Shown here piece after piece: positions 2 to 11,181 of a stretch of 11,181 nucleotides of DNA; positions within the stretch are counted from its first letter, which is position 1; each line of letters begins with the position of its first letter. Origin of the DNA: a virus; UHGV virus genome UHGV-0130923; one strand, written 5' to 3'. The notes under the pieces were generated by a model, which searched no databases, was not told the DNA's origin, and saw only the letters and a program-made list of their open reading frames with translations. A program made the translations under genes and the position numbers.

Positions 2-124
2 CTGTACGTTTCGCCGATTGTTTCCGGTGAGGTTATCCGTTCCCGTGGCGGCTCCACCTCTGAATTTACGCCGGGATATGTCAAACCCAAGCACTTAGCA
101 TGGCTTTCTGAGGCTTTCGTGTAG
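2..124 (+). CDS. E: Lambda E-like major capsid protein, N-terminal-side fragment of the helper prophage gene (runs off the window start, interrupted by the island)
   Basis: Frame starting at nt 2 reads LYVSPIVSGEVIRSRGGSTSEFTPGYVKPKH, then nine unrelated residues (LAWLSEAFV) and a TAG at 122-124. The conserved part matches lambda gpE residues ~52-82 as I recall them. The reading frame changes character exactly at the direct repeat. Confidence 0.8.
   Translation: MYVSPIVSGEVIRSRGGSTSEFTPGYVKPKHLAWLSEAFV
84..93. other. attL core: left copy of the 10-bp direct repeat AACCCAAGCA
   Basis: Identical 10-mer at 84-93 and 10843-10852, each sitting on the K-P-K-H codons of the split capsid gene. An integrase gene begins ~160 bp inside the left copy. 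Confidence 0.75.
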
Positions 125-2328: not shown

Positions 2329-2678
2329 AGCATTCTAACTCCCTTAACTTATTTATTACTTTCTCTTTATGATAAGAGAGGGGAATGACTTGGTAAAGTG
2401 ATTTGTCATTAATAATGATAATCCTTGCGATAAATATTTCTGCAAGTTATTTACCTGTTTGTTGCTATCTTGTTAAGCGTTGGGTGTGGTTTATGTTTGG
2501 AGCGACTTTATTTAATCGTGATTTTATGGATTTATATTTATATCCTGTAAGATAAGCGCATGTTAGTTCAGGAGTAGTGTCAGATAAAATTATTCGGAGT
2601 AGAACTACCTTTTCTGTTTATTGCCAGTATTTACATAGCAATGCGCCGTAGTTACTCACATCACGGCGCTGATACTAA

Positions 2679-2981
2679 TTATTCAGATTCTTTGGCTTTA
2701 CGCCGCTGGAGTTCTTCACGAGCGACGGCTACGAGTTGCCCGATTTCCTCCGCTGCCTTGATGCCGATTTGTTCGACCTTAGCTAAGGCATCCAGTGAAG
2801 ACACGAGGGGATTTTCTCCGCTTCCTTCTGCCTGGCGGCGGGCGATCTCACCGCGCATGGCGGTTACTATGAATCCGGCGTTGCTTTCGCCGTCCAGTTT
2901 TACGGATTCCATGCCCTCCATAACATCGTGGGGAACCCTGATCGTTGTCATTTGCGATTTTGCATTTTTGTATACAGACAT
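2679..2981 (-). CDS. YlcI/YnfO-family (DUF3950-like) small protein, candidate island regulator
   Basis: 100-aa ORF. The segment TTIRVPHDVMEGMESVKLDGESNAGFIVTAMRGEIARR parallels the pattern of E. coli prophage YlcI (IRFPNQMIEQINIALDQKGSGNFSAWVIEACRRR) as recalled from memory. It is transcribed divergently from the plus-strand operon. Confidence 0.55.
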   Translation of the reverse strand: MSVYKNAKSQMTTIRVPHDVMEGMESVKLDGESNAGFIVTAMRGEIARRQAEGSGENPLVSSLDALAKVEQIGIKAAEEIGQLVAVAREELQRRKAKESE

Positions 2982-3001
2982 AGTTAATCACCAATTTGTT
3001 A

Positions 3002-3104
3002 TGTGTATATCACTATACACAAAAGTGAGATATAAAAACACTTGCAATGTATATCACCACAATATAATGTATATCTCACATTATGGTCGCTATGTATCTC
3101 ACAA
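3002..3104. promoter_or_regulatory. Divergent promoter/operator region with repeated TGTATATC(A/T)CAC-like sites
   Basis: Inverted repeat TGTGTATA-TCAC-TATACACA at 3002-3021, with related copies at 3026-3035 (inverted), 3048-3059, 3068-3081 and 3092-3104, in the AT-rich gap between the two divergent genes. Confidence 0.5.
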
Positions 3105-3189
3105 TGATCGATTCATAAAAACGACGAAACCCGGCAGTGCGCGAACACTAACCGGGCTTCTAACCAAACCGTTAAACGAGGTAACGATT

Positions 3190-3555
3190 ATGGCTGGAAC
3201 ACAGCATACCCAAACTCACCCTAAATTTATATACACCTTTGTGGCACTACACCACGACCGCATGGCAGATGGAGCAACTACGGTACATGTTGCCGCTGAC
3301 ACGCTGGTTGATGCCCGCAAGATGGTTAAGGAGATGGGCTATACTGCGGCTTTCTGGAAAGGGCGTGAAGAAAACACGCTGTTTATTCAGAAATGCGAAA
3401 ACAATTTCATCTGGCGTTTTATCGCCCTGAGCACCGCACAACCACGCGTAATACACATCGTGGCCACCAGCGAACAGGAAGCCCGCCAGCAATCCCCGGC
3501 TGGTTGCGTGATGGTATTCGCCGCCCGTATTCGTCAGGAGGTATGCCGTGCTTAA
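3190..3555 (+). CDS. Hypothetical protein, first gene of the plus-strand early operon
   Basis: ATG at 3190 preceded by GAGGT at 3179-3183. This is the in-frame internal start of track ORF 2641..3555, whose upstream part overlaps the opposite-strand gene and the operator region. Confidence 0.5.
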   Translation: MAGTQHTQTHPKFIYTFVALHHDRMADGATTVHVAADTLVDARKMVKEMGYTAAFWKGREENTLFIQKCENNFIWRFIALSTAQPRVIHIVATSEQEARQQSPAGCVMVFAARIRQEVCRA

Positions 3556-4358: not shown

Positions 4359-6110
4359 ATGAAGAGCGCACCGAACCTAAAAAAACAGCCGCGCGACAAG
4401 ATGACAGAAGTTATTATTTTTGCGGGTAGTGATGCGTGGAGCCATGCGAAAGAGTGGCAGGAATGGGCGGGTAAACATATTGCCGCCGACGATGTGCCGC
4501 CTGTCGTGCTGGCTGATGAGCAACTGAAAAATATCACCGATTACCGGATCATTGATGAAGATCGTCAGTGTGTGCGTGTTTACCGCGCAGGACATATCAC
4601 AGAGCACAGCATGACGCAGATTGTTACGTTACTGGCTGTGGCTGGAGTGAAGACCGTACACGAATACGCGGGGATTACTGACACCAGCCCCGTGGATTTA
4701 TCCGACCAGTTGCCGCGACTCAAAGAGGAATGCGAGCGTGGGGAAAGTCTGGTGCTTAATCTTCCGACGAAGCAAAAGGCGCAACTTTCACAGATGGCAG
4801 ACAGTGAACGTGCACAACTACTTGCCGATCGCTTTGATGGTGTGTGTGTTCATGCAGAAAGTGAAATCGTCCACGTATGGCGCGGCGGGGTATGGTGTCC
4901 GGTCAGCACAATGGAGCTGAGCCGCGAAATGGTGGCGATCTATTCAGAGCACAGGGCCACATTCAGCAAGCGTGCAATTAATAACGCCGTGGAGGCGTTA
5001 AAAGTTATTGCCGACCCCATGGGGGAGCCGTCCGGTGATTTGCTACCGTTCGCCAATGGTGTGCTTGACCTGAAAACGGGGGAATTTTCCCCGCACTCGC
5101 CGGAGAACTGGATCACCACGCACAACGGCATTGAGTACACGCCACCAGCACCAGGGGAGAACATCCGCGACAACGCGCCAAACTTTCATAAATGGCTTGA
5201 TCACGCAGCCGGAAAAGACCCACGCAAGATGATGCGTATATGTGCCGCGCTGTACATGATTATGGCGAACCGGTACGACTGGCAGATGTTTATTGAGGCC
5301 ACCGGAGACGGCGGGAGCGGAAAGAGTACATTCACGCACATAGCCAGCCTTCTGGCAGGGAAACAGAACACGGTAAGCGCTGAAATGACTTCGCTTGATG
5401 ATGCTGGTGGGCGTGCTCAGGTTGTCGGGAGTCGTCTTATCGTCCTGGCTGACCAGCCGAAATATACAGGCGAAGGCACGGGCATCAAGAAAATCACGGG
5501 CGGCGACCCCGTGGAAATAAACCCGAAATATGAAAAGCGTTTTACGGCGGTAATCAGGGCGGTGGTGCTGGCTACCAACAATAACCCGATGATATTCACC
5601 GAACGGGCCGGAGGTGTGTCACGTCGTCGCGTAATTTTCCGCTTCGACAATATCGTTAGCGAGGCAGAAAAGGACAAGGATTTACCGGAGAAGGTCGCGG
5701 CTGAAATCCCCGTGATTATCCGCAGATTGCTGGCAAACTTTGCTGATCCAGAAAAGGCGCGACATTTGTTGATTGAACAGCGCGACGGTGAAGAAGCACT
5801 GGCGATAAAGCAACAGACGGATCCGGTTATTGAGTTTTGCCAGTTTCTGAATTTTCTGGAGGAAGCGCGCGGCCTGATGATGGGTGGCGGTGGCGATTCC
5901 GTGAAGTACACGACCAGAAACAGCCTTTACCGCGTCTATCTGGCGTTTATGGCATACGCAGGCAGAAGCAAGCCGCTAAACGTGGCTGATTTCAGCAAGG
6001 CCATGAAGCCAGCGGCGAAAGTTTACGGATGTGAATATATAACGCGCAGGGTTAAAGGACTTACGCAAACCAATGTGACAACAACAGAGGATTGCGACGC
6101 GTTTTTATAA
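4359..6110 (+). CDS. Primase-helicase family replication protein (P4 alpha C-terminal / D5-like NTPase)
   Basis: 583 aa with a Walker A P-loop GDGGSGKST and a downstream hydrophobic strand ending in acidic residues (RLIVLADQP), Walker B-like. AGGGGG ribosome-binding site before the ATG at 4359. An iteron array lies immediately downstream. Confidence 0.75.
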   Translation: MKSAPNLKKQPRDKMTEVIIFAGSDAWSHAKEWQEWAGKHIAADDVPPVVLADEQLKNITDYRIIDEDRQCVRVYRAGHITEHSMTQIVTLLAVAGVKTVHEYAGITDTSPVDLSDQLPRLKEECERGESLVLNLPTKQKAQLSQMADSERAQLLADRFDGVCVHAESEIVHVWRGGVWCPVSTMELSREMVAIYSEHRATFSKRAINNAVEALKVIADPMGEPSGDLLPFANGVLDLKTGEFSPHSPENWITTHNGIEYTPPAPGENIRDNAPNFHKWLDHAAGKDPRKMMRICAALYMIMANRYDWQMFIEATGDGGSGKSTFTHIASLLAGKQNTVSAEMTSLDDAGGRAQVVGSRLIVLADQPKYTGEGTGIKKITGGDPVEINPKYEKRFTAVIRAVVLATNNNPMIFTERAGGVSRRRVIFRFDNIVSEAEKDKDLPEKVAAEIPVIIRRLLANFADPEKARHLLIEQRDGEEALAIKQQTDPVIEFCQFLNFLEEARGLMMGGGGDSVKYTTRNSLYRVYLAFMAYAGRSKPLNVADFSKAMKPAAKVYGCEYITRRVKGLTQTNVTTTEDCDAFL

Positions 6111-7290: not shown

Positions 7291-8331
7291 ATGGTTGATT
7301 TATATTCGCCTGCCCAGCTTGTGCAGGTGGCTAATGCTGAAGATGTGCAAAAAAAATTAAATGCGTTGTTTACCAGTTTGTTTTTCACTCGCTCGGTAAT
7401 GTTTGAATCGAGAGACATTATTCTTGATACGATCGACGATCCAAATATCCCGATCGCGGCGTTTTGCTCTCCTATGGTGGGCAGTAAGGTTTCACGAGAT
7501 GAGGGATACGAATCAAAGACAATTCGTCCAGGCTATATGAAGCCGAAAAGCAGCATTGATCCAAATAAGTTAGCTGTGCGCCCTGCGGGTGTATCACCTG
7601 AGCAATACAATGCTTTTGGAGCGCGTAATATTAAAGTTAAACAGGCGATTGTAAATCAGGCTAAAGCTATTCGTGCACGTATTGAATGGCTTGCCGTTCA
7701 GGCAATCACAACGGGGAAAAATATCATTGAGGGCGATGGTATTGAACGTTATGAGCTGGACTGGAATATTAAACCACAAAATATCATCACTCAGTCTGGC
7801 GGTGCTGAGTGGTCAGGTAAGGATAAAGAAACTTTTGATCCAAATGATGATATTGAGAGCTACGCAGAATTTAGTGAGGGCGTCACTAATATCATCATTA
7901 TGGGCGGTAATGTATGGAAGAAATACCGTTCATTCAGAGCGATAAAAGAGGCTCTGGATACCCGTCGTGGTTCTAATGCCGAACTGGAAACGGCCCTTAA
8001 AGACCTTGGTGATTCGGTGAGTTTTAAAGGGTATATGGGCGATGTTGCGATTGTTGTATACAGCGGGCGTTATACCGACGAGGACGGAACTGAAAAACAT
8101 TTCCTTGATCCTGATTTGATGGTGCTTGGCAATACGGCTCTTCAGGGGATTGTCGCCTATGGCGGTATTCAGGATCCGGAGCTAATCCGAATGGGGCTGA
8201 CTAAAGCCGAACTTGCACCGAAAAACTATATTGTGCCTGGTGATCCGGCTATTGAATATGTGCAGACACATTCAGCACCACAGCCAATACCGGCCCGCAT
8301 CAATCGTTTTGTTACCGTTCGCATTGGCTAA
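7291..8331 (+). CDS. Island-encoded divergent homolog of the lambda major capsid protein gpE
   Basis: ATG at 7291 with AAAGAGGA upstream. The product aligns with lambda gpE along its length: ITQSGGAEWSGKDKETFDPNDDIESYA vs ITQSGGTEWSKRDKSTYDPTDDIEAYA, TRRGSNAELETALKDLG vs TRRGSNSELETAVKDLG, GDVAIVVYSG and MVLGNT shared. It is far more divergent than the flanking helper fragments. Confidence 0.85.
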   Translation: MVDLYSPAQLVQVANAEDVQKKLNALFTSLFFTRSVMFESRDIILDTIDDPNIPIAAFCSPMVGSKVSRDEGYESKTIRPGYMKPKSSIDPNKLAVRPAGVSPEQYNAFGARNIKVKQAIVNQAKAIRARIEWLAVQAITTGKNIIEGDGIERYELDWNIKPQNIITQSGGAEWSGKDKETFDPNDDIESYAEFSEGVTNIIIMGGNVWKKYRSFRAIKEALDTRRGSNAELETALKDLGDSVSFKGYMGDVAIVVYSGRYTDEDGTEKHFLDPDLMVLGNTALQGIVAYGGIQDPELIRMGLTKAELAPKNYIVPGDPAIEYVQTHSAPQPIPARINRFVTVRIG

Positions 8332-8340
8332 GGGGGAGCA

Positions 8341-8682
8341 ATGGCTACTCATTACACTGAACTCATGGCTGGCACTGAAGCACTGGTGACTACGCTGGGG
8401 ATATTTTCAGCTAATAAAGGGGTAATTCCTGCATTTACGCCACTGATGCAGGAAGATGCAACAGGTGCACTGGTGGTATGGGATGGTTCGAGCGTAGGTA
8501 AAGCGGTTTATGTTTCCGCTGTACAAATCGACACCGCGAAAAAAACACAGGCTCAGGTCTATAAGACAGGTGTCTTAAATGTTGATGCTCTGAACTGGCC
8601 TGAGTCTGTAAAAGAACTGTCAGTAAAGATTGCAGCGTTTGTTGGCTCAGGTATTTCTGTTCAGCCGCTGGCTCGTGTGTAA
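8341..8682 (+). CDS. Island-encoded homolog of the lambda head decoration protein gpD
   Basis: 113 aa with an AAGGGGGAG ribosome-binding site. TPLMQEDATGALVVWDGSS...YKTGVLNVDALNWPE...AAFVGSGISV parallels lambda gpD TPLMLDTSSRKLVAWDGTT...YKSGTFRYEDVLWPE...TAFAGTAISIV. Confidence 0.8.
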   Translation: MATHYTELMAGTEALVTTLGIFSANKGVIPAFTPLMQEDATGALVVWDGSSVGKAVYVSAVQIDTAKKTQAQVYKTGVLNVDALNWPESVKELSVKIAAFVGSGISVQPLARV

Positions 8683-8693
8683 AGGGGGATACA

Positions 8694-9077
8694 ATGCAGA
8701 ATCTTTACAATGACCTTAAGCCAATTGCCGAAATGATGTATCCGGATCCAGCAGTAGAGGAATTAAAGGCTATTGCTGACAAAATGCGTTTAAGCGAGCG
8801 TCTTGTTGATATGAATCAGGTGATGGAACTTACAACCCTGAGTCGTCGTACACTGCTAAACCTTGAAGCACGTGGAGAGTTCCCCGAACGCGTGCAGGTT
8901 ACGGAAGGGCGTAAGGCCTGGTATTTAAGCGAAGTGATCGACTGGATAAACAATATTCCGCGCGCTTCTGAATATTGCCGCGTACCTGTCCCAAAAAAGC
9001 CAGATGCGGCGCTATGCCTCAAGATTGAGCGTGTACGCCGCAATGCGCGGGATGGTCGCTATAAGCTGATTGGTTGA
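8694..9077 (+). CDS. Second AlpA-family HTH protein, directly upstream of cos
   Basis: 127 aa with an AAAGGGGGA ribosome-binding site. Contains MELTTLSRRTLLNLEARGEFPERVQVTEGRKAWYLSEVIDWIN, an AlpA-like motif. Co-oriented and tightly spaced with the E and D homologs. Confidence 0.6.
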   Translation: MQNLYNDLKPIAEMMYPDPAVEELKAIADKMRLSERLVDMNQVMELTTLSRRTLLNLEARGEFPERVQVTEGRKAWYLSEVIDWINNIPRASEYCRVPVPKKPDAALCLKIERVRRNARDGRYKLIG

Positions 9078-9103
9078 TGAAATTAGGGCCCGTTCTGGCT
9101 GGC

Positions 9104-9167
9104 GGGTCCTTTCCGGCGATCCGACAGGTTACGGGGCGGCGACCTCGCGGGTTTTCGCTATTTATGA
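9104..9167. other. Lambda-type cos site (cosQ-side sequence, cosN GGGCGGCGACCT at 9134-9145, first cosB element)
   Basis: GGGTCCTTTCCGGCGATCCGACAGGTTACG-GGGCGGCGACCT-CGCGGGTTTTCGCTATTTATGA matches the lambda genome ends as I recall them (right end ...CCGACAGGTTACG, left end GGGCGGCGACCTCGCGGGTTTTCGCTATTTATGA...). Sequence after 9167 no longer matches lambda cosB. A Nu1-like gene follows ~150 bp downstream, as in lambda. Confidence 0.8.
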
Positions 9168-9293
9168 GCATTTTTAGGGGACTGGTGGTGGTTTTGTTGT
9201 TCGCTATATCTGTATGAATAATAAGAGAAAAACACAATCAACACACCAACCTGAAACAGTAATTAAGTTGTGGTATCAATGAAATTGCACCTG

Positions 9294-9821
9294 ATGAACA
9301 AAAAAAACATGGCAAAAAGTTGCCGTGTAAGCGCCACTGCGTTCGATAAGTGGGGAGTGATTCCCGTCGAGCGTAAGGGCCGCGAGGCGTTTTATGATGT
9401 CGCCAGTGTAATAGATAATCGGGTTAACAATGCAATCAGCCAGATTACAAACGAAACGGGCGAGATTGATGATGATGAACTCCTACGAGTCAGGATCAGA
9501 TTGCTGACAGCACAGGCAGAGGCGCAGGAGCTTAAAAACGAGCGCGAACGCGGCGACGTTATTGATACAGCGTTTTGTATATACGTGCTTTCAAAACTGG
9601 CGAGTCAGATTTCTTCAATCATGGACAGCCTGCCGCTTGCCATGACAAGGAAGTTTCCCGACATGAAGCCGTCTATGCTGGATGGACTGAAAAAAGAAGT
9701 TATCAGAGCCTGTAACGCATGCGCAAAACTTGACGAAAACATACCGCTGATGCTGTCCGATTATCTGATGGAAACTGCCGGAAACGTACCGGATAAGTTG
9801 CAGCTGAATAAAGATAAGTAA
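9294..9821 (+). CDS. Nu1-like terminase small subunit
   Basis: LTAQAEAQELKNERERGDVIDTAFCIYVLSKLASQISSIMDSLPLAMTRKFP...LDENIPLMLSDYLMETAG parallels lambda Nu1 LTRAQADAQELKNARDSAEVVETAFCTFVLSRIAGEIASILDGLPLSVQRRFP...LDELIPGLLSEYIEQSG. Start chosen at ATG 9294 (MNKKNM...) by analogy with Nu1 MEVNKKQ; ATG 9279 and GTG 9270 are alternatives. Confidence 0.75.
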   Translation: MNKKNMAKSCRVSATAFDKWGVIPVERKGREAFYDVASVIDNRVNNAISQITNETGEIDDDELLRVRIRLLTAQAEAQELKNERERGDVIDTAFCIYVLSKLASQISSIMDSLPLAMTRKFPDMKPSMLDGLKKEVIRACNACAKLDENIPLMLSDYLMETAGNVPDKLQLNKDK

Positions 9822-9832
9822 CGTAGTACGCT

Positions 9833-10114
9833 ATGACTGAATCCGAAATACTGCGATTAATCCGCCGTGCTTGTGGAATCAGCAAGCAGCATGACGAACA
9901 GGCCACGCAGCCGGACAGCGTGATCGCCGAAAATTACGCGCGTGTTGTTGCTGATGTGATGCGCCGTGATGGTATTGAGCTTAACGGCGTGGATATGCGC
10001 GACATACGGATCAGATTCCTTGAGTTGCTGGCATACCGTCGCCGTTCTCAACAACGAAGGGAGAGCGCGAAAAACACTTATCAGTGGAAGAAGCCGGAAC
10101 GGTTGCGGCGGTAG
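9833..10114 (+). CDS. Hypothetical Arg-rich small protein, possibly a vestigial terminase large subunit (gpA) N-terminal fragment
   Basis: 93-aa ORF immediately after the Nu1-like gene, where gpA begins in lambda. Weak resemblance of SEILRLIRRACGIS...AENYA to gpA N-terminus SQVNRLRHFVRAGLRS...ADANYY; the remainder is Arg-rich. Weak ribosome-binding site. Confidence 0.3.
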   Translation: MTESEILRLIRRACGISKQHDEQATQPDSVIAENYARVVADVMRRDGIELNGVDMRDIRIRFLELLAYRRRSQQRRESAKNTYQWKKPERLRR

Positions 10115-10744
10115 ATTCCTGATATTCAGGAAAACCACGAATCCGGGGGTTTTACTGGCGCGGTGTACACGGTGGAACGTATAGCGTTACCTGACTTATT
10201 GCATTGTAAAAAGTTGAAAGGCACGGCCTGTAAGATGGGATGTTGTGAGTAGTTTAAAGCTACCCGCAAATTCTTTCGTTGTGCTGGCACAGGCGGTTAA
10301 ACCGTCGGTAACTGGATAATCCCCACTGGGGGAAAAGCTGGCTACATCCCTCACATCTGAGGACTGATAACGCAAAATTGCGTTGGCTGGCAGAGTGCAA
10401 ATTTGCACGATGGCCTAACCCATTGATTCTTTCGAAAACCCCCATTGGGGGAGAACGGGGGAATAAACCTGACTCATTGATTTTTCCACAATCCTTAATT
10501 TGAGGAAGCTGGATAGTTGCACTACCCAAAAAGTGCAGTACCCACATAGCTGCTTAATAGCGTTTATTTTTTCCGCACACCTCAAATCTGAGAAGGCCGG
10601 AATGATGACATGGCAGGATTATGATTCCTTGATTTCAAGGAGTCCTCCAGTGTGAAAATGAAATTATCTGGGCTGGTGGGTGAGTTGCTGATCTGCAACT
10701 CGGCTATGAAACTTAATAATCGAACAGCATGTAAATTCATTTCT

Positions 10745-10769
10745 GTGTATTGCAGCATGTATTGCAACA
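10745..10769. promoter_or_regulatory. attR arm-type repeats (putative integrase arm-binding sites)
   Basis: TGTGTATTGCAGC (10745-10757) and ATGTATTGCAAC (10758-10769), the same motif family as at 205-241 in the left end. Confidence 0.5.
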
Positions 10770-10842
10770 TAGTCATTCTGGTAGAGATTATGCTCTATTT
10801 TTCCTCTTATATCATTCACATACTTACGTCATTGACTCATGT

Positions 10843-10852
10843 AACCCAAGCA
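10843..10852. other. attR core: right copy of the 10-bp direct repeat AACCCAAGCA
   Basis: Identical to 84-93; the capsid reading frame resumes immediately (P-K-H-E-V-N-P-Q). Confidence 0.75.
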
Positions 10853-11181
10853 TGAGGTGAATCCGCAGATGACCCTGCGTCGCCTGCCGGATGAAGATCC
10901 GCAGAATCTGGCGGACCCGGCTTACCGCCGCCGTCGCATCATCATGCAGAACATGCGTGACGAAGAGCTGGCCATTGCTCAGGTCGAAGAGATGCAGGCA
11001 GTTTCTGCCGTGCTTAAGGGCAAATACACCATGACCGGTGAAGCCTTTGATCCGGTTGAGGTGGATATGGGGCGCAGTGCGGCGAACAACATCACACAGT
11101 CCGGTGGCACGGAGTGGAGCAAGCGCGACAAGTCCACGTATGACCCGACCGACGATATCGAAGCCTACGCGCTGAACGCCA
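10845..11181 (+). CDS. E: Lambda E-like major capsid protein, distal fragment of the helper prophage gene (runs off the window end)
   Basis: Frame from 10845 reads PKHEVNPQMTLRRLPDEDPQNLADPAYRRRRIIMQNMRDEELAIAQVEEMQAVSAVLKGKYTMTGEAFDPVEVDMGRSAANNITQSGGTEWSKRDKSTYDPTDDIEAYALNA, which continues lambda gpE from residue ~80 as I recall it. An in-frame TAA at 10842-10844 immediately precedes it. Confidence 0.8.

Follow-up and report, generated by a model that had tools for sequence, protein, structure and literature searches.

How a phage satellite that encodes a small terminase and no large one could have its DNA packaged by a lambda-type phage is the question raised by a cos locus in UHGV virus genome UHGV-0130923, of which a stretch of 11,181 nucleotides (hereafter the window) was analysed. 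Lambda terminase is the textbook model of cos recognition, and E. coli's phage-inducible chromosomal islands (PICIs) mobilise virulence and defence genes. To our knowledge, the only characterised route by which a cos-type PICI takes over the lambda packaging machinery is the Rpp adaptor. [quoted passage not shown] On balance, we favour the reading that this feature is a satellite packaging-specificity cassette, which would steer the large terminase (TerL) of the helper through a binding region, cosB', and its reader, TerS'. The elements of the cassette are listed below in window coordinates.

9103 to 9133, plus strand: cosQ-containing segment CGGGTCCTTTCCGGCGATCCGACAGGTTACG; one mismatch to lambda, no indel, lambda spacing
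9134 to 9145, plus strand: cosN, the 12-nt cohesive-end sequence GGGCGGCGACCT; exact match to lambda
9146 to 9167, plus strand: right flank of cosN, CGCGGGTTTTCGCTATTTATGA, where lambda has I2; helper-like, with cosN-to-R3 spacing free of indels
9184 to 9198, plus strand: R3', GGTGGTGGTTTTGTT, the proposed TerS' binding site
9243 to 9251, minus strand: R2', GGTTGGTGT, which repeats part of R3' in inverted orientation, 59 bp downstream and separated from it by AT-rich sequence
9279 to 9821, plus strand: terS' (180 aa), full-length small terminase gene of the Nu1 family, assigned from PF07471, phrog_57, alignments and the ratio of nonsynonymous to synonymous substitution rates (dN/dS)

The nick site is that of the helpers. 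In ungapped comparison with circularised lambda, 64 of 65 positions are identical over 9103–9167 (−31 to +33) and 71 of 78 over 9103–9180, while identity amounts to only 28/63 over the 63 bp after 9180 and to 8/29 upstream of 9103. A preliminary description of this DNA had claimed that the cohesive end and about 20 bp on either side match lambda, and that the sequence then diverges across the Nu1-binding elements; both claims are borne out by these counts. The assignment of cosQ to 9103–9133 is taken from the published anatomy of lambda cos (PMC9026076), and this segment is conserved in all aligned island and helper cos sites. The cohesive-end sequence is also exact in phage 21 and in the resident helper of the closest relative. 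When 9000–9900 was searched by BLASTN against 50,697 phage records, the cos block of about 75–80 bp was the sole match, found in 100 lambdoid records.

Beyond this block, the elements that lambda Nu1 recognises are gone. The lambda R-box core (CGTTTCC/GGAAACG) is absent from 9146–9300, and the window has no cosB of the lambda type, that is, R3-I1-R2-R1 with CGTTTCC-type R boxes and a site for integration host factor (IHF). What stands in their place reads as a structured, conserved element, not as random sequence. Lambda R3 lies at bp 50–65 and N15 R3 at bp 48–60 from the left end (PMC9026076). Up to +47 from cosN the window aligns with both lambda and N15 without indels, and GGTGGTGGTTTTGTT therefore occupies bp 51–65 from the left cohesive end. 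The stretch GGTGGTGGT belongs to this candidate R3' site. R3' and R2' are the only two matches to the pattern GGTKGKKGT in the 11-kb window, and their geometry resembles the R3-I1-R2 arrangement of lambda. A remote rR2 in the manner of N15 was also considered and rejected, as no copy of the R core occurs inside terS'. R3' is identical in all E. coli terS' islands, whether these are integrated at capsid E, portal B, cspD/clpS or rcnR/thiM, and the block is kept as AGGTGGTGGTGTTGTT in capE islands of Enterobacter and Citrobacter, with both flanks diverged. R2' is conserved in E. coli and Citrobacter, and more weakly in Enterobacter. Because dS in the adjacent gene reaches about 1.0 within E. coli, and because the cos flanks diverge across genera, R3' has the appearance of a cross-genus footprint, at which TerS' would bind. 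It also matches 10 of 14 positions of GGTTGTTGTTTAAT, the R3 core of N15 and of the N15-type helper at locus L012, whose cosB contains three perfect GGTTGTTGT boxes in direct, inverted and direct orientation. The preliminary description had spoken of the island's own cosB. That the lambda elements are replaced has stood, and candidate R3' and R2' sites can now be placed; an island invention, however, this cosB is not, since it is of the N15 type.

Two further observations concern cos sites in related islands. A sub-lineage of capE islands has an altered cohesive end, GGGCGTCAGGCG, and the helper prophages of these islands keep GGGCGGCGACCT. The altered cosN is found with both types of cosB, the lambda type in NRG857c (L018 25034–25290) and cosB' in L012 (19919–20120), L017 and L020; it could represent a disabled cos or a new end specificity. 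Some islands also carry a second, inverted copy of cos between the specificity gene and a downstream 93-aa open reading frame (ORF), at L008 11808–11884 and L009 3264–3340, the latter presumably being the cos2 described for EcCICFT073; the window is without one. IMG/VR was scanned for contigs with an end at cosN, which would be a trace of packaged island DNA. In 40 loci neither boundary coincides with cosN, and terminal repeats are absent from all of them; most of these loci are prophage-prediction cuts, and the scan is uninformative.

The gene next to cosB' begins at ATG 9279 (MKLHLMNKKN...) and not at GTG 9270, according to family alignments and the RefSeq call in relatives. Its product matches positions 33–162 of the Pfam profile Phage_Nu1 (PF07471; E=1.4e-24, with 87 bits where the gathering score is 30) and the terminase small subunit family phrog_57 (2e-51, residues 2–174 of TerS'). 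The ORF list, Pfam and the annotation of relatives contain no TerL-sized ORF in the island, and terS' is followed by the 93-aa ORF, not by its own terL as in phages; the earlier claim of a Nu1-like gene beside cos and no large terminase thus agrees with these searches. In the protein, a DNA-binding domain of the N15 type at the N-terminus is followed by a central domain that is conserved, by a C-terminal domain that occurs in different alleles, and by a tail extension of 13 aa. Its alignment with Nu1 covers the full length and takes in the 40 C-terminal residues, which Rpp does not have, with a 13-residue deletion in the linker and the 13-residue extension at the C-terminus. Identities to lambda Nu1 are distributed as follows.

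Lambda residues 1–55, DNA-binding domain: 36% identity
Lambda residues 56–84, linker: 29% identity (61% with an alternative partition at 69–99)
Lambda residues 85–140, central self-association region: 56% identity
Lambda residues 141–181, gpA-binding tail: 39% identity

It had been suggested that the C-terminal region of the Nu1-like protein, which contacts gpA in lambda, is its most conserved part. The central region does have the highest identity, but the gpA-binding last 40 or so residues are about as similar to lambda as the DNA-binding domain is. The central region is 54% identical to that of third-type TerS, and a tail motif, (I/L)PxxLxxY(I/L), is common to TerS', lambda and third-type TerS. 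The closest phage TerS is N15 gp1, at 47.6%. TerS' nevertheless forms its own clade, with 75–95% identity within E. coli, about 60% in other genera and at most 48% to any sequenced phage TerS. Its DNA-binding domain is about 60% identical to the N15-type domain, and the motif AFDKWGV-PVE-GRE-FYDV is common to TerS', N15 gp1 and the TerS of the L012 N15-type helper. Judged from these alignments, the DNA-binding domain and R3' appear to be a diverged pair of the N15 recognition type, and not an invention of the island. In a structural model by AlphaFold, the N-terminus has the beta-alpha-alpha-beta-beta-alpha topology of a winged helix, with a predicted local distance difference test score (pLDDT) of 70–79. 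A sequence search of the PDB with TerS' returned no relevant match, the RppC and TerS entries included.

The gene terS' is under purifying selection in all domains. Pairwise dN/dS is 0.15–0.22 overall, with 0–0.09 in the DNA-binding domain and 0.12–0.32 in the C-terminal domain (omega 0.02–0.32 over all domains), and the 180-aa ORF is intact in every locus read. The N-terminus hardly varies across the island family, and the last 50 or so residues occur as two alleles in E. coli and a third in other genera. These selection data make it unlikely that cos-like sequence and gene alike are remnants in decay, with no part in the transfer of an island that spreads only passively with the composite prophage. 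In favour of this very improbable account are the altered cosN of the related capE sub-lineage, whose helpers keep the canonical one, and the failure to detect virions of the exemplar composite (PMC10111431); against it are also the canonical cosN of the window, the conservation of R3' across genera and the presence of the module in non-embedded chromosomal PICIs, unable to spread in this way.

The comparison with EcCICFT073, the PICI in which cos1 and RppA have been described, bears most directly on function. Loci L014 and L008 keep about 92% identity to EcCICFT073 as far as 40 bp beyond the first cohesive-end base (cosN+40), and similarity resumes at the first codon of the 93-aa ORF. Between these two points, L014 and L008 have cosB' and terS' where EcCICFT073 has its cosB and rppA (L009:2660–3094). 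In L008 and L014, cosB' travels with terS' and not with the left flank. What is swapped would be exactly the DNA site together with its reader. As with Rpp, the gene sits directly downstream of a PICI cos and beside a cosB that is not the helper's. A function in packaging specificity is strongly argued because cosB'-terS' replaces, at the identical slot, the cosB-rppA pair that experiments have shown to redirect packaging (PMC6739421). The terS' cassette is present in 181 of 5426 complete E. coli genomes, with terminase small subunit annotation in all, among the matches listed; the rppA cassette, at a nucleotide identity of at least 80%, is in 97, about half as many. Strains with the terS' cassette include FDAARGOS_1296 (NZ_CP070066), which matches the window at 100% over 9160–9830, and GN06489. 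Intact terS' is found at no fewer than four integration sites (E, portal, cspD/clpS and rcnR/thiM) in three genera, and never with terL in the island. A wider proposal, which we put forward tentatively, is that the segment from cosN+40 to the 93-aa ORF is, in enterobacterial PICIs, a hot-swappable packaging-specificity cassette with at least three fillings: cosB with the rppA adaptor, which needs helper TerS; cosB' with an N15-type terS', which would form a chimeric holoenzyme with helper TerL and make helper Nu1 dispensable; and a helper-type cosB with a truncated nu1. TerS' would then rank as the first small terminase of the cos type in a satellite, and as the commoner solution in E. coli.

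In the favoured reading, helper cosQ and cosN, kept at exact spacing, would be where helper TerL (gpA) nicks and terminates, retained cosQ serving the termination of packaging. The Nu1-binding cosB of the helper would have been replaced by a compact N15-type cosB', composed of R3' and the inverted R2', to which TerS' would bind through its predicted winged-helix N-terminus while assembling with helper TerL through its Nu1-like central and C-terminal domains. The DNA cut at cosN and filled into heads of helper origin would be replicated concatemers of the island instead of helper DNA. DNA binding at R3', recruitment of TerL and the effect on the helper are thus predicted features of the model, and the model is plausible, considering the directly observed anatomy and spacing of the site, its conservation, the selection on terS', the cassette relation and the lack of a TerL. 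The architecture for hijacking gpA that had been proposed earlier is accordingly retained as far as helper cosQ/cosN, a different cosB, a conserved and selected Nu1 homologue and the missing TerL are concerned; it does not hold for the gpA-binding tail, which is not best conserved and whose alleles do not co-vary with the TerL type of the resident helper.

Several points weigh against this reading. We infer the binding of TerS' to helper gpA from sequence. The C-terminal 40-residue gpA-binding segment is present, aligned and under purifying selection, but its 39% identity to lambda has to be set beside the 31–32% found there between lambda and phage 21, which are not interchangeable. A C-terminal allele that tracks the TerL type of the helper was tried as a candidate and rejected: the first four embedded pairs agreed, and then type 2 appeared in lambda-type helpers. 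In this small and non-independent sample, type 1 is always with a lambda-type terminase, and type 2 is found with helpers of the third type (L008, L012) as well as with lambda-type ones (L017, L020, L022). No IHF consensus was found between R3' and R2', at up to one mismatch in cosB. The AlphaFold model is of low confidence (pLDDT 64.7 overall), and a Foldseek search of the PDB returned weak MerR-like winged-helix hits (E>=0.16) and no significant match. Finally, N15-type lambdoid helpers have a cosB similar to cosB' and a DNA-binding domain similar to that of TerS', so that the specificity may be shared where the helper is of this type.

Among the alternatives, the one that survives best, although we regard it as unlikely, is that TerS' acts in the manner of Rpp, as an adaptor or poison: it would form hetero-oligomers with helper Nu1 through the central domain and shift affinity from the helper cosB to cosB', with Nu1 supplying the contact to TerL. 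The cassette does sit in the slot of rppA, Rpp does act through binding to TerS (PMC6739421), and the missing co-variation of C-terminal allele and helper TerL would be expected of a protein that makes no contact with TerL. It is also the central region that is most similar to phage TerS, at 56% to lambda and 54% to the third type, but phage TerS types are equally alike there (58% between lambda and 21). Rpp, moreover, binds the N-terminal domain of TerS by an unrelated dimerisation domain (PMC6739421), TerS' has no detectable similarity to RppA, and TerS' retains, under purifying selection (omega 0.12–0.32), a C-terminal domain for which an adaptor would have no use.

A further account, which we judge rather improbable, takes the module to be a cos and gene 1 passively captured from an N15-type lambdoid phage; the cos would be usable by such helpers, and TerS' would be redundant or a spare, with no redirection. 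HE-PICIs are known to take up helper late genes (PMC10111431), and the corresponding slot of the Eco567.11capE exemplar, holding a lambda-type cosB and a truncated nu1, is a clear remnant of capture. The N15-type helper at L012 also has a related DNA-binding domain (about 60%) and a related cosB. Among the eight embedded loci, however, only the L012 helper has the related N15-type domain, and six helpers are lambda-type, including one with a 21-type DNA-binding domain; by their sequences, the helpers of seven of the eight loci (six lambda-type, one with another DNA-binding type) are judged unable to read cosB'. Simple capture is also at odds with the separate clade of TerS' (no more than 48% to any sequenced phage TerS), with its island-specific C-terminal extension, with an R3' core in which 4 of 14 positions depart from the N15 type and which is yet conserved across genera, and with the strong purifying selection on terS'.

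The remaining features of the island are these.

84 to 93, plus strand: attL identity block AACCCAAGCA; to its left, the N-terminal fragment of the helper lambda-type capsid gene E
10843 to 10852, plus strand: attR identity block AACCCAAGCA; helper gene E picks up again here (PKHEVNPQMTLRRLP...)
8694 to 9077, plus strand: second AlpA-like regulator, directly upstream of cos; PF05930 E=1.4e-8, phrog_2790 E=1.8e-48
9833 to 10114, plus strand: 93-aa ORF, conserved; phrog_1561 E=1.3e-53; right boundary of the swappable cassette

From att block to att block the island measures 10,759 bp in window numbering. The pattern ARCCSAAGCA has two matches in the window, both of which are the att blocks, and the block is the same as that published for E_Phage_cap_E_80 HE-PICIs, embedding at this site being a published configuration (Tommasini, Mageeney & Williams 2023, PMC10111431); that study covers about 200 capE and about 290 other HE-PICIs. 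The window flanks (1–93 and 10843–11181) translate to lambda-type gpE and are 97–100% identical to helper prophage E genes, and the island is co-oriented with the capsid gene that it interrupts. In the closest complete genomes, which have 95% identity over 98% of the window, the element lies inside the major capsid gene of a lambda-like prophage. Upstream of the element are the helper genes for terminase, portal, protease and D, and downstream those from FI to the tail; the split capsid gene is annotated by RefSeq in L001 (the 95%-identical locus) and in further relatives. The helper TerL gene lies about 13 kb upstream in embedded relatives. The free-standing island envisaged in the preliminary description is therefore to be replaced by one embedded in helper capsid gene E, as the att blocks, the gpE flanks and the split gene in relatives all indicate.

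The PICI core genes int, alpA and primase point in one direction, and tail and lysis genes are absent, according to Pfam and the RefSeq annotation of L001. The early genes comprise int, an AlpA-type helix-turn-helix regulator (annotated in L001), an Icd-like gene, a primase and SSB; the late genes are homologues of capsid E and decoration protein D, the second AlpA-like gene, cos, terS' and the 93-aa ORF. The D5-type primase (583 aa), the integrase (428 aa) and the capsid E homologue (375 aa) have the largest ORFs. The island has its own capsid protein E homologue at 7291–8331 (PF03864, 5e-41), despite interrupting that of the helper, and its own decoration protein D homologue at 8341–8682 (PF02924, 4e-15). 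The position of the AlpA-like gene at 8694–9077 within the module E'-D'-AlpA'-cos-terS' is kept in E. coli, Enterobacter and Citrobacter islands, and its product may be a late-operon activator or a factor acting at cos. A promoter and terminator scan of 8300–10900 found no promoter upstream of terS', which fits read-through late transcription and is not diagnostic of it. A 304-aa ORF at 2641–3555 is likely over-extended, since RefSeq relatives have there a minus-strand YlcI/YnfO gene (about 2679–2981) and the Icd-like gene (about 3190–3555). No convincing gene was seen in window positions 10115–10842. In relatives, the stretch right after the terS' slot is a hotspot of accessory and defence genes, with HEPN and DUF262 in NRG857c (L018 25279–27253), an abortive-infection gene in L012 (21352–22113), and FRG and DUF3892 in Enterobacter (L023 10559–11916).

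Satellite small terminases, PICIs with conserved cosN and divergent cosB, and helper-embedded PICIs are all already known. A TerS of the lambda/N15 type with its own R3-type cosB in cos PICIs, as an alternative to Rpp, was not found in the literature, where coverage of subscription journals was thin, so that an earlier description is possible. If the favoured reading is right, the cassette suggests a second route to the lambda packaging machinery, made up of a private small terminase and a private cosB with the helper nick site kept, and roughly twice as frequent as Rpp in complete E. coli genomes. It also amounts to a natural experiment on which TerS residues set cosB specificity, with the lambda, 21 and N15 types and R3' open to comparison, and on how permissive the interface between TerS and TerL is. 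As the helper carries the island within it, there is no ambiguity about which helper and satellite form the pair, and tests are easy to design.

Among known systems, the nearest in layout is the EcCICFT073 cos1-RppA system (Fillol-Salom 2018/2019; Murialdo & Feiss 2022), which has the same late order of capsid E', D', a small gene, cos, specificity gene and 93-aa ORF, a cosQ and cosN the same as those of lambdoid helpers, a cosB unrelated to the helper's, and the specificity gene directly downstream of cos. Rpp binds helper TerS and redirects it to the PICI cosB (PMC6739421, PMC9026076), and it is through Rpp that the principle of conserved cosN and different cosB in E. coli PICIs is known (PMC6739421). 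The reader itself differs: RppA (144 aa) has only the winged helix in common with Nu1, without the central and TerL-binding parts. Membership of TerS' in the Rpp family was considered and rejected, no BLASTP alignment with RppA being obtained at E<=100. The sequence at the R3 position is GGTGACACCACCACC in EcCICFT073 cos1 and GGTGGTGGTTTTGTT here. Rpp needs helper TerS; TerS', with all Nu1 domains, may not.

The published exemplar Eco567.11capE agrees with the window in its integration site in capsid gene E, in its att block, in its backbone and, as far as the AlpA-like gene, in its late module. In its slot, by contrast, are a cosN variant, a cosB of the lambda type, an nu1 truncated to 64 aa and HEPN/DUF262 genes, where the window has a canonical cosN, cosB' and full-length terS'; the exemplar has been described as lacking terS (PMC10111431).

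N15 gp1 with cosB(N15), and helpers of the L012 type, provide the closest phage TerS, the DNA-binding motif, the distance of R3 from cosN and a related core. In N15, unlike here, terL follows gp1, and 4 of the 14 positions of the R3 core are different. The linker of TerS' is shorter than that of N15 gp1, and TerS' has R16 and T20 in place of G and Q in alpha1 and at the first alpha2 residues, as well as the 13-aa C-terminal extension. Work on lambda/21 terminase chimeras from the Feiss laboratory is said to have established that the N-terminal domain of TerS sets specificity for cosB and the C-terminal domain that for TerL; in those chimeras both modules come from autonomous phages, whereas here the reader belongs to a satellite without terL. 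A natural chimeric TerS is encoded by the L015 helper (5118–5663), with a DNA-binding N-terminus of the phage 21 type and a C-terminus of the lambda type, beside a lambda-type TerL; it illustrates the modularity that is also exploited by TerS'.

The closest parallel in strategy lies in the Staphylococcus aureus pathogenicity islands (SaPIs). SaPI1 and SaPIbov1 also use a satellite TerS homologue (TerS_S) without TerL, together with their own recognition site, to redirect helper TerL (PMC6092414, PMC10085698). A terS gene is a core component of PICIs in SatelliteFinder (PMC10085698), and some Gram-negative PICIs carry a terS homologue (PMC6092414). The SaPI systems are headful (pac) and their TerS folds are unrelated, whereas the window has a lambda-type cos in which the nick site of the helper is kept and only cosB and the DNA-binding domain are exchanged. 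By this analogy, with which the genetic architecture alone is consistent, the cassette would correspond, in a cos-phage setting, to the small-terminase strategy of the SaPIs, and would offer an alternative to Rpp, the adaptor of EcCICFT073.

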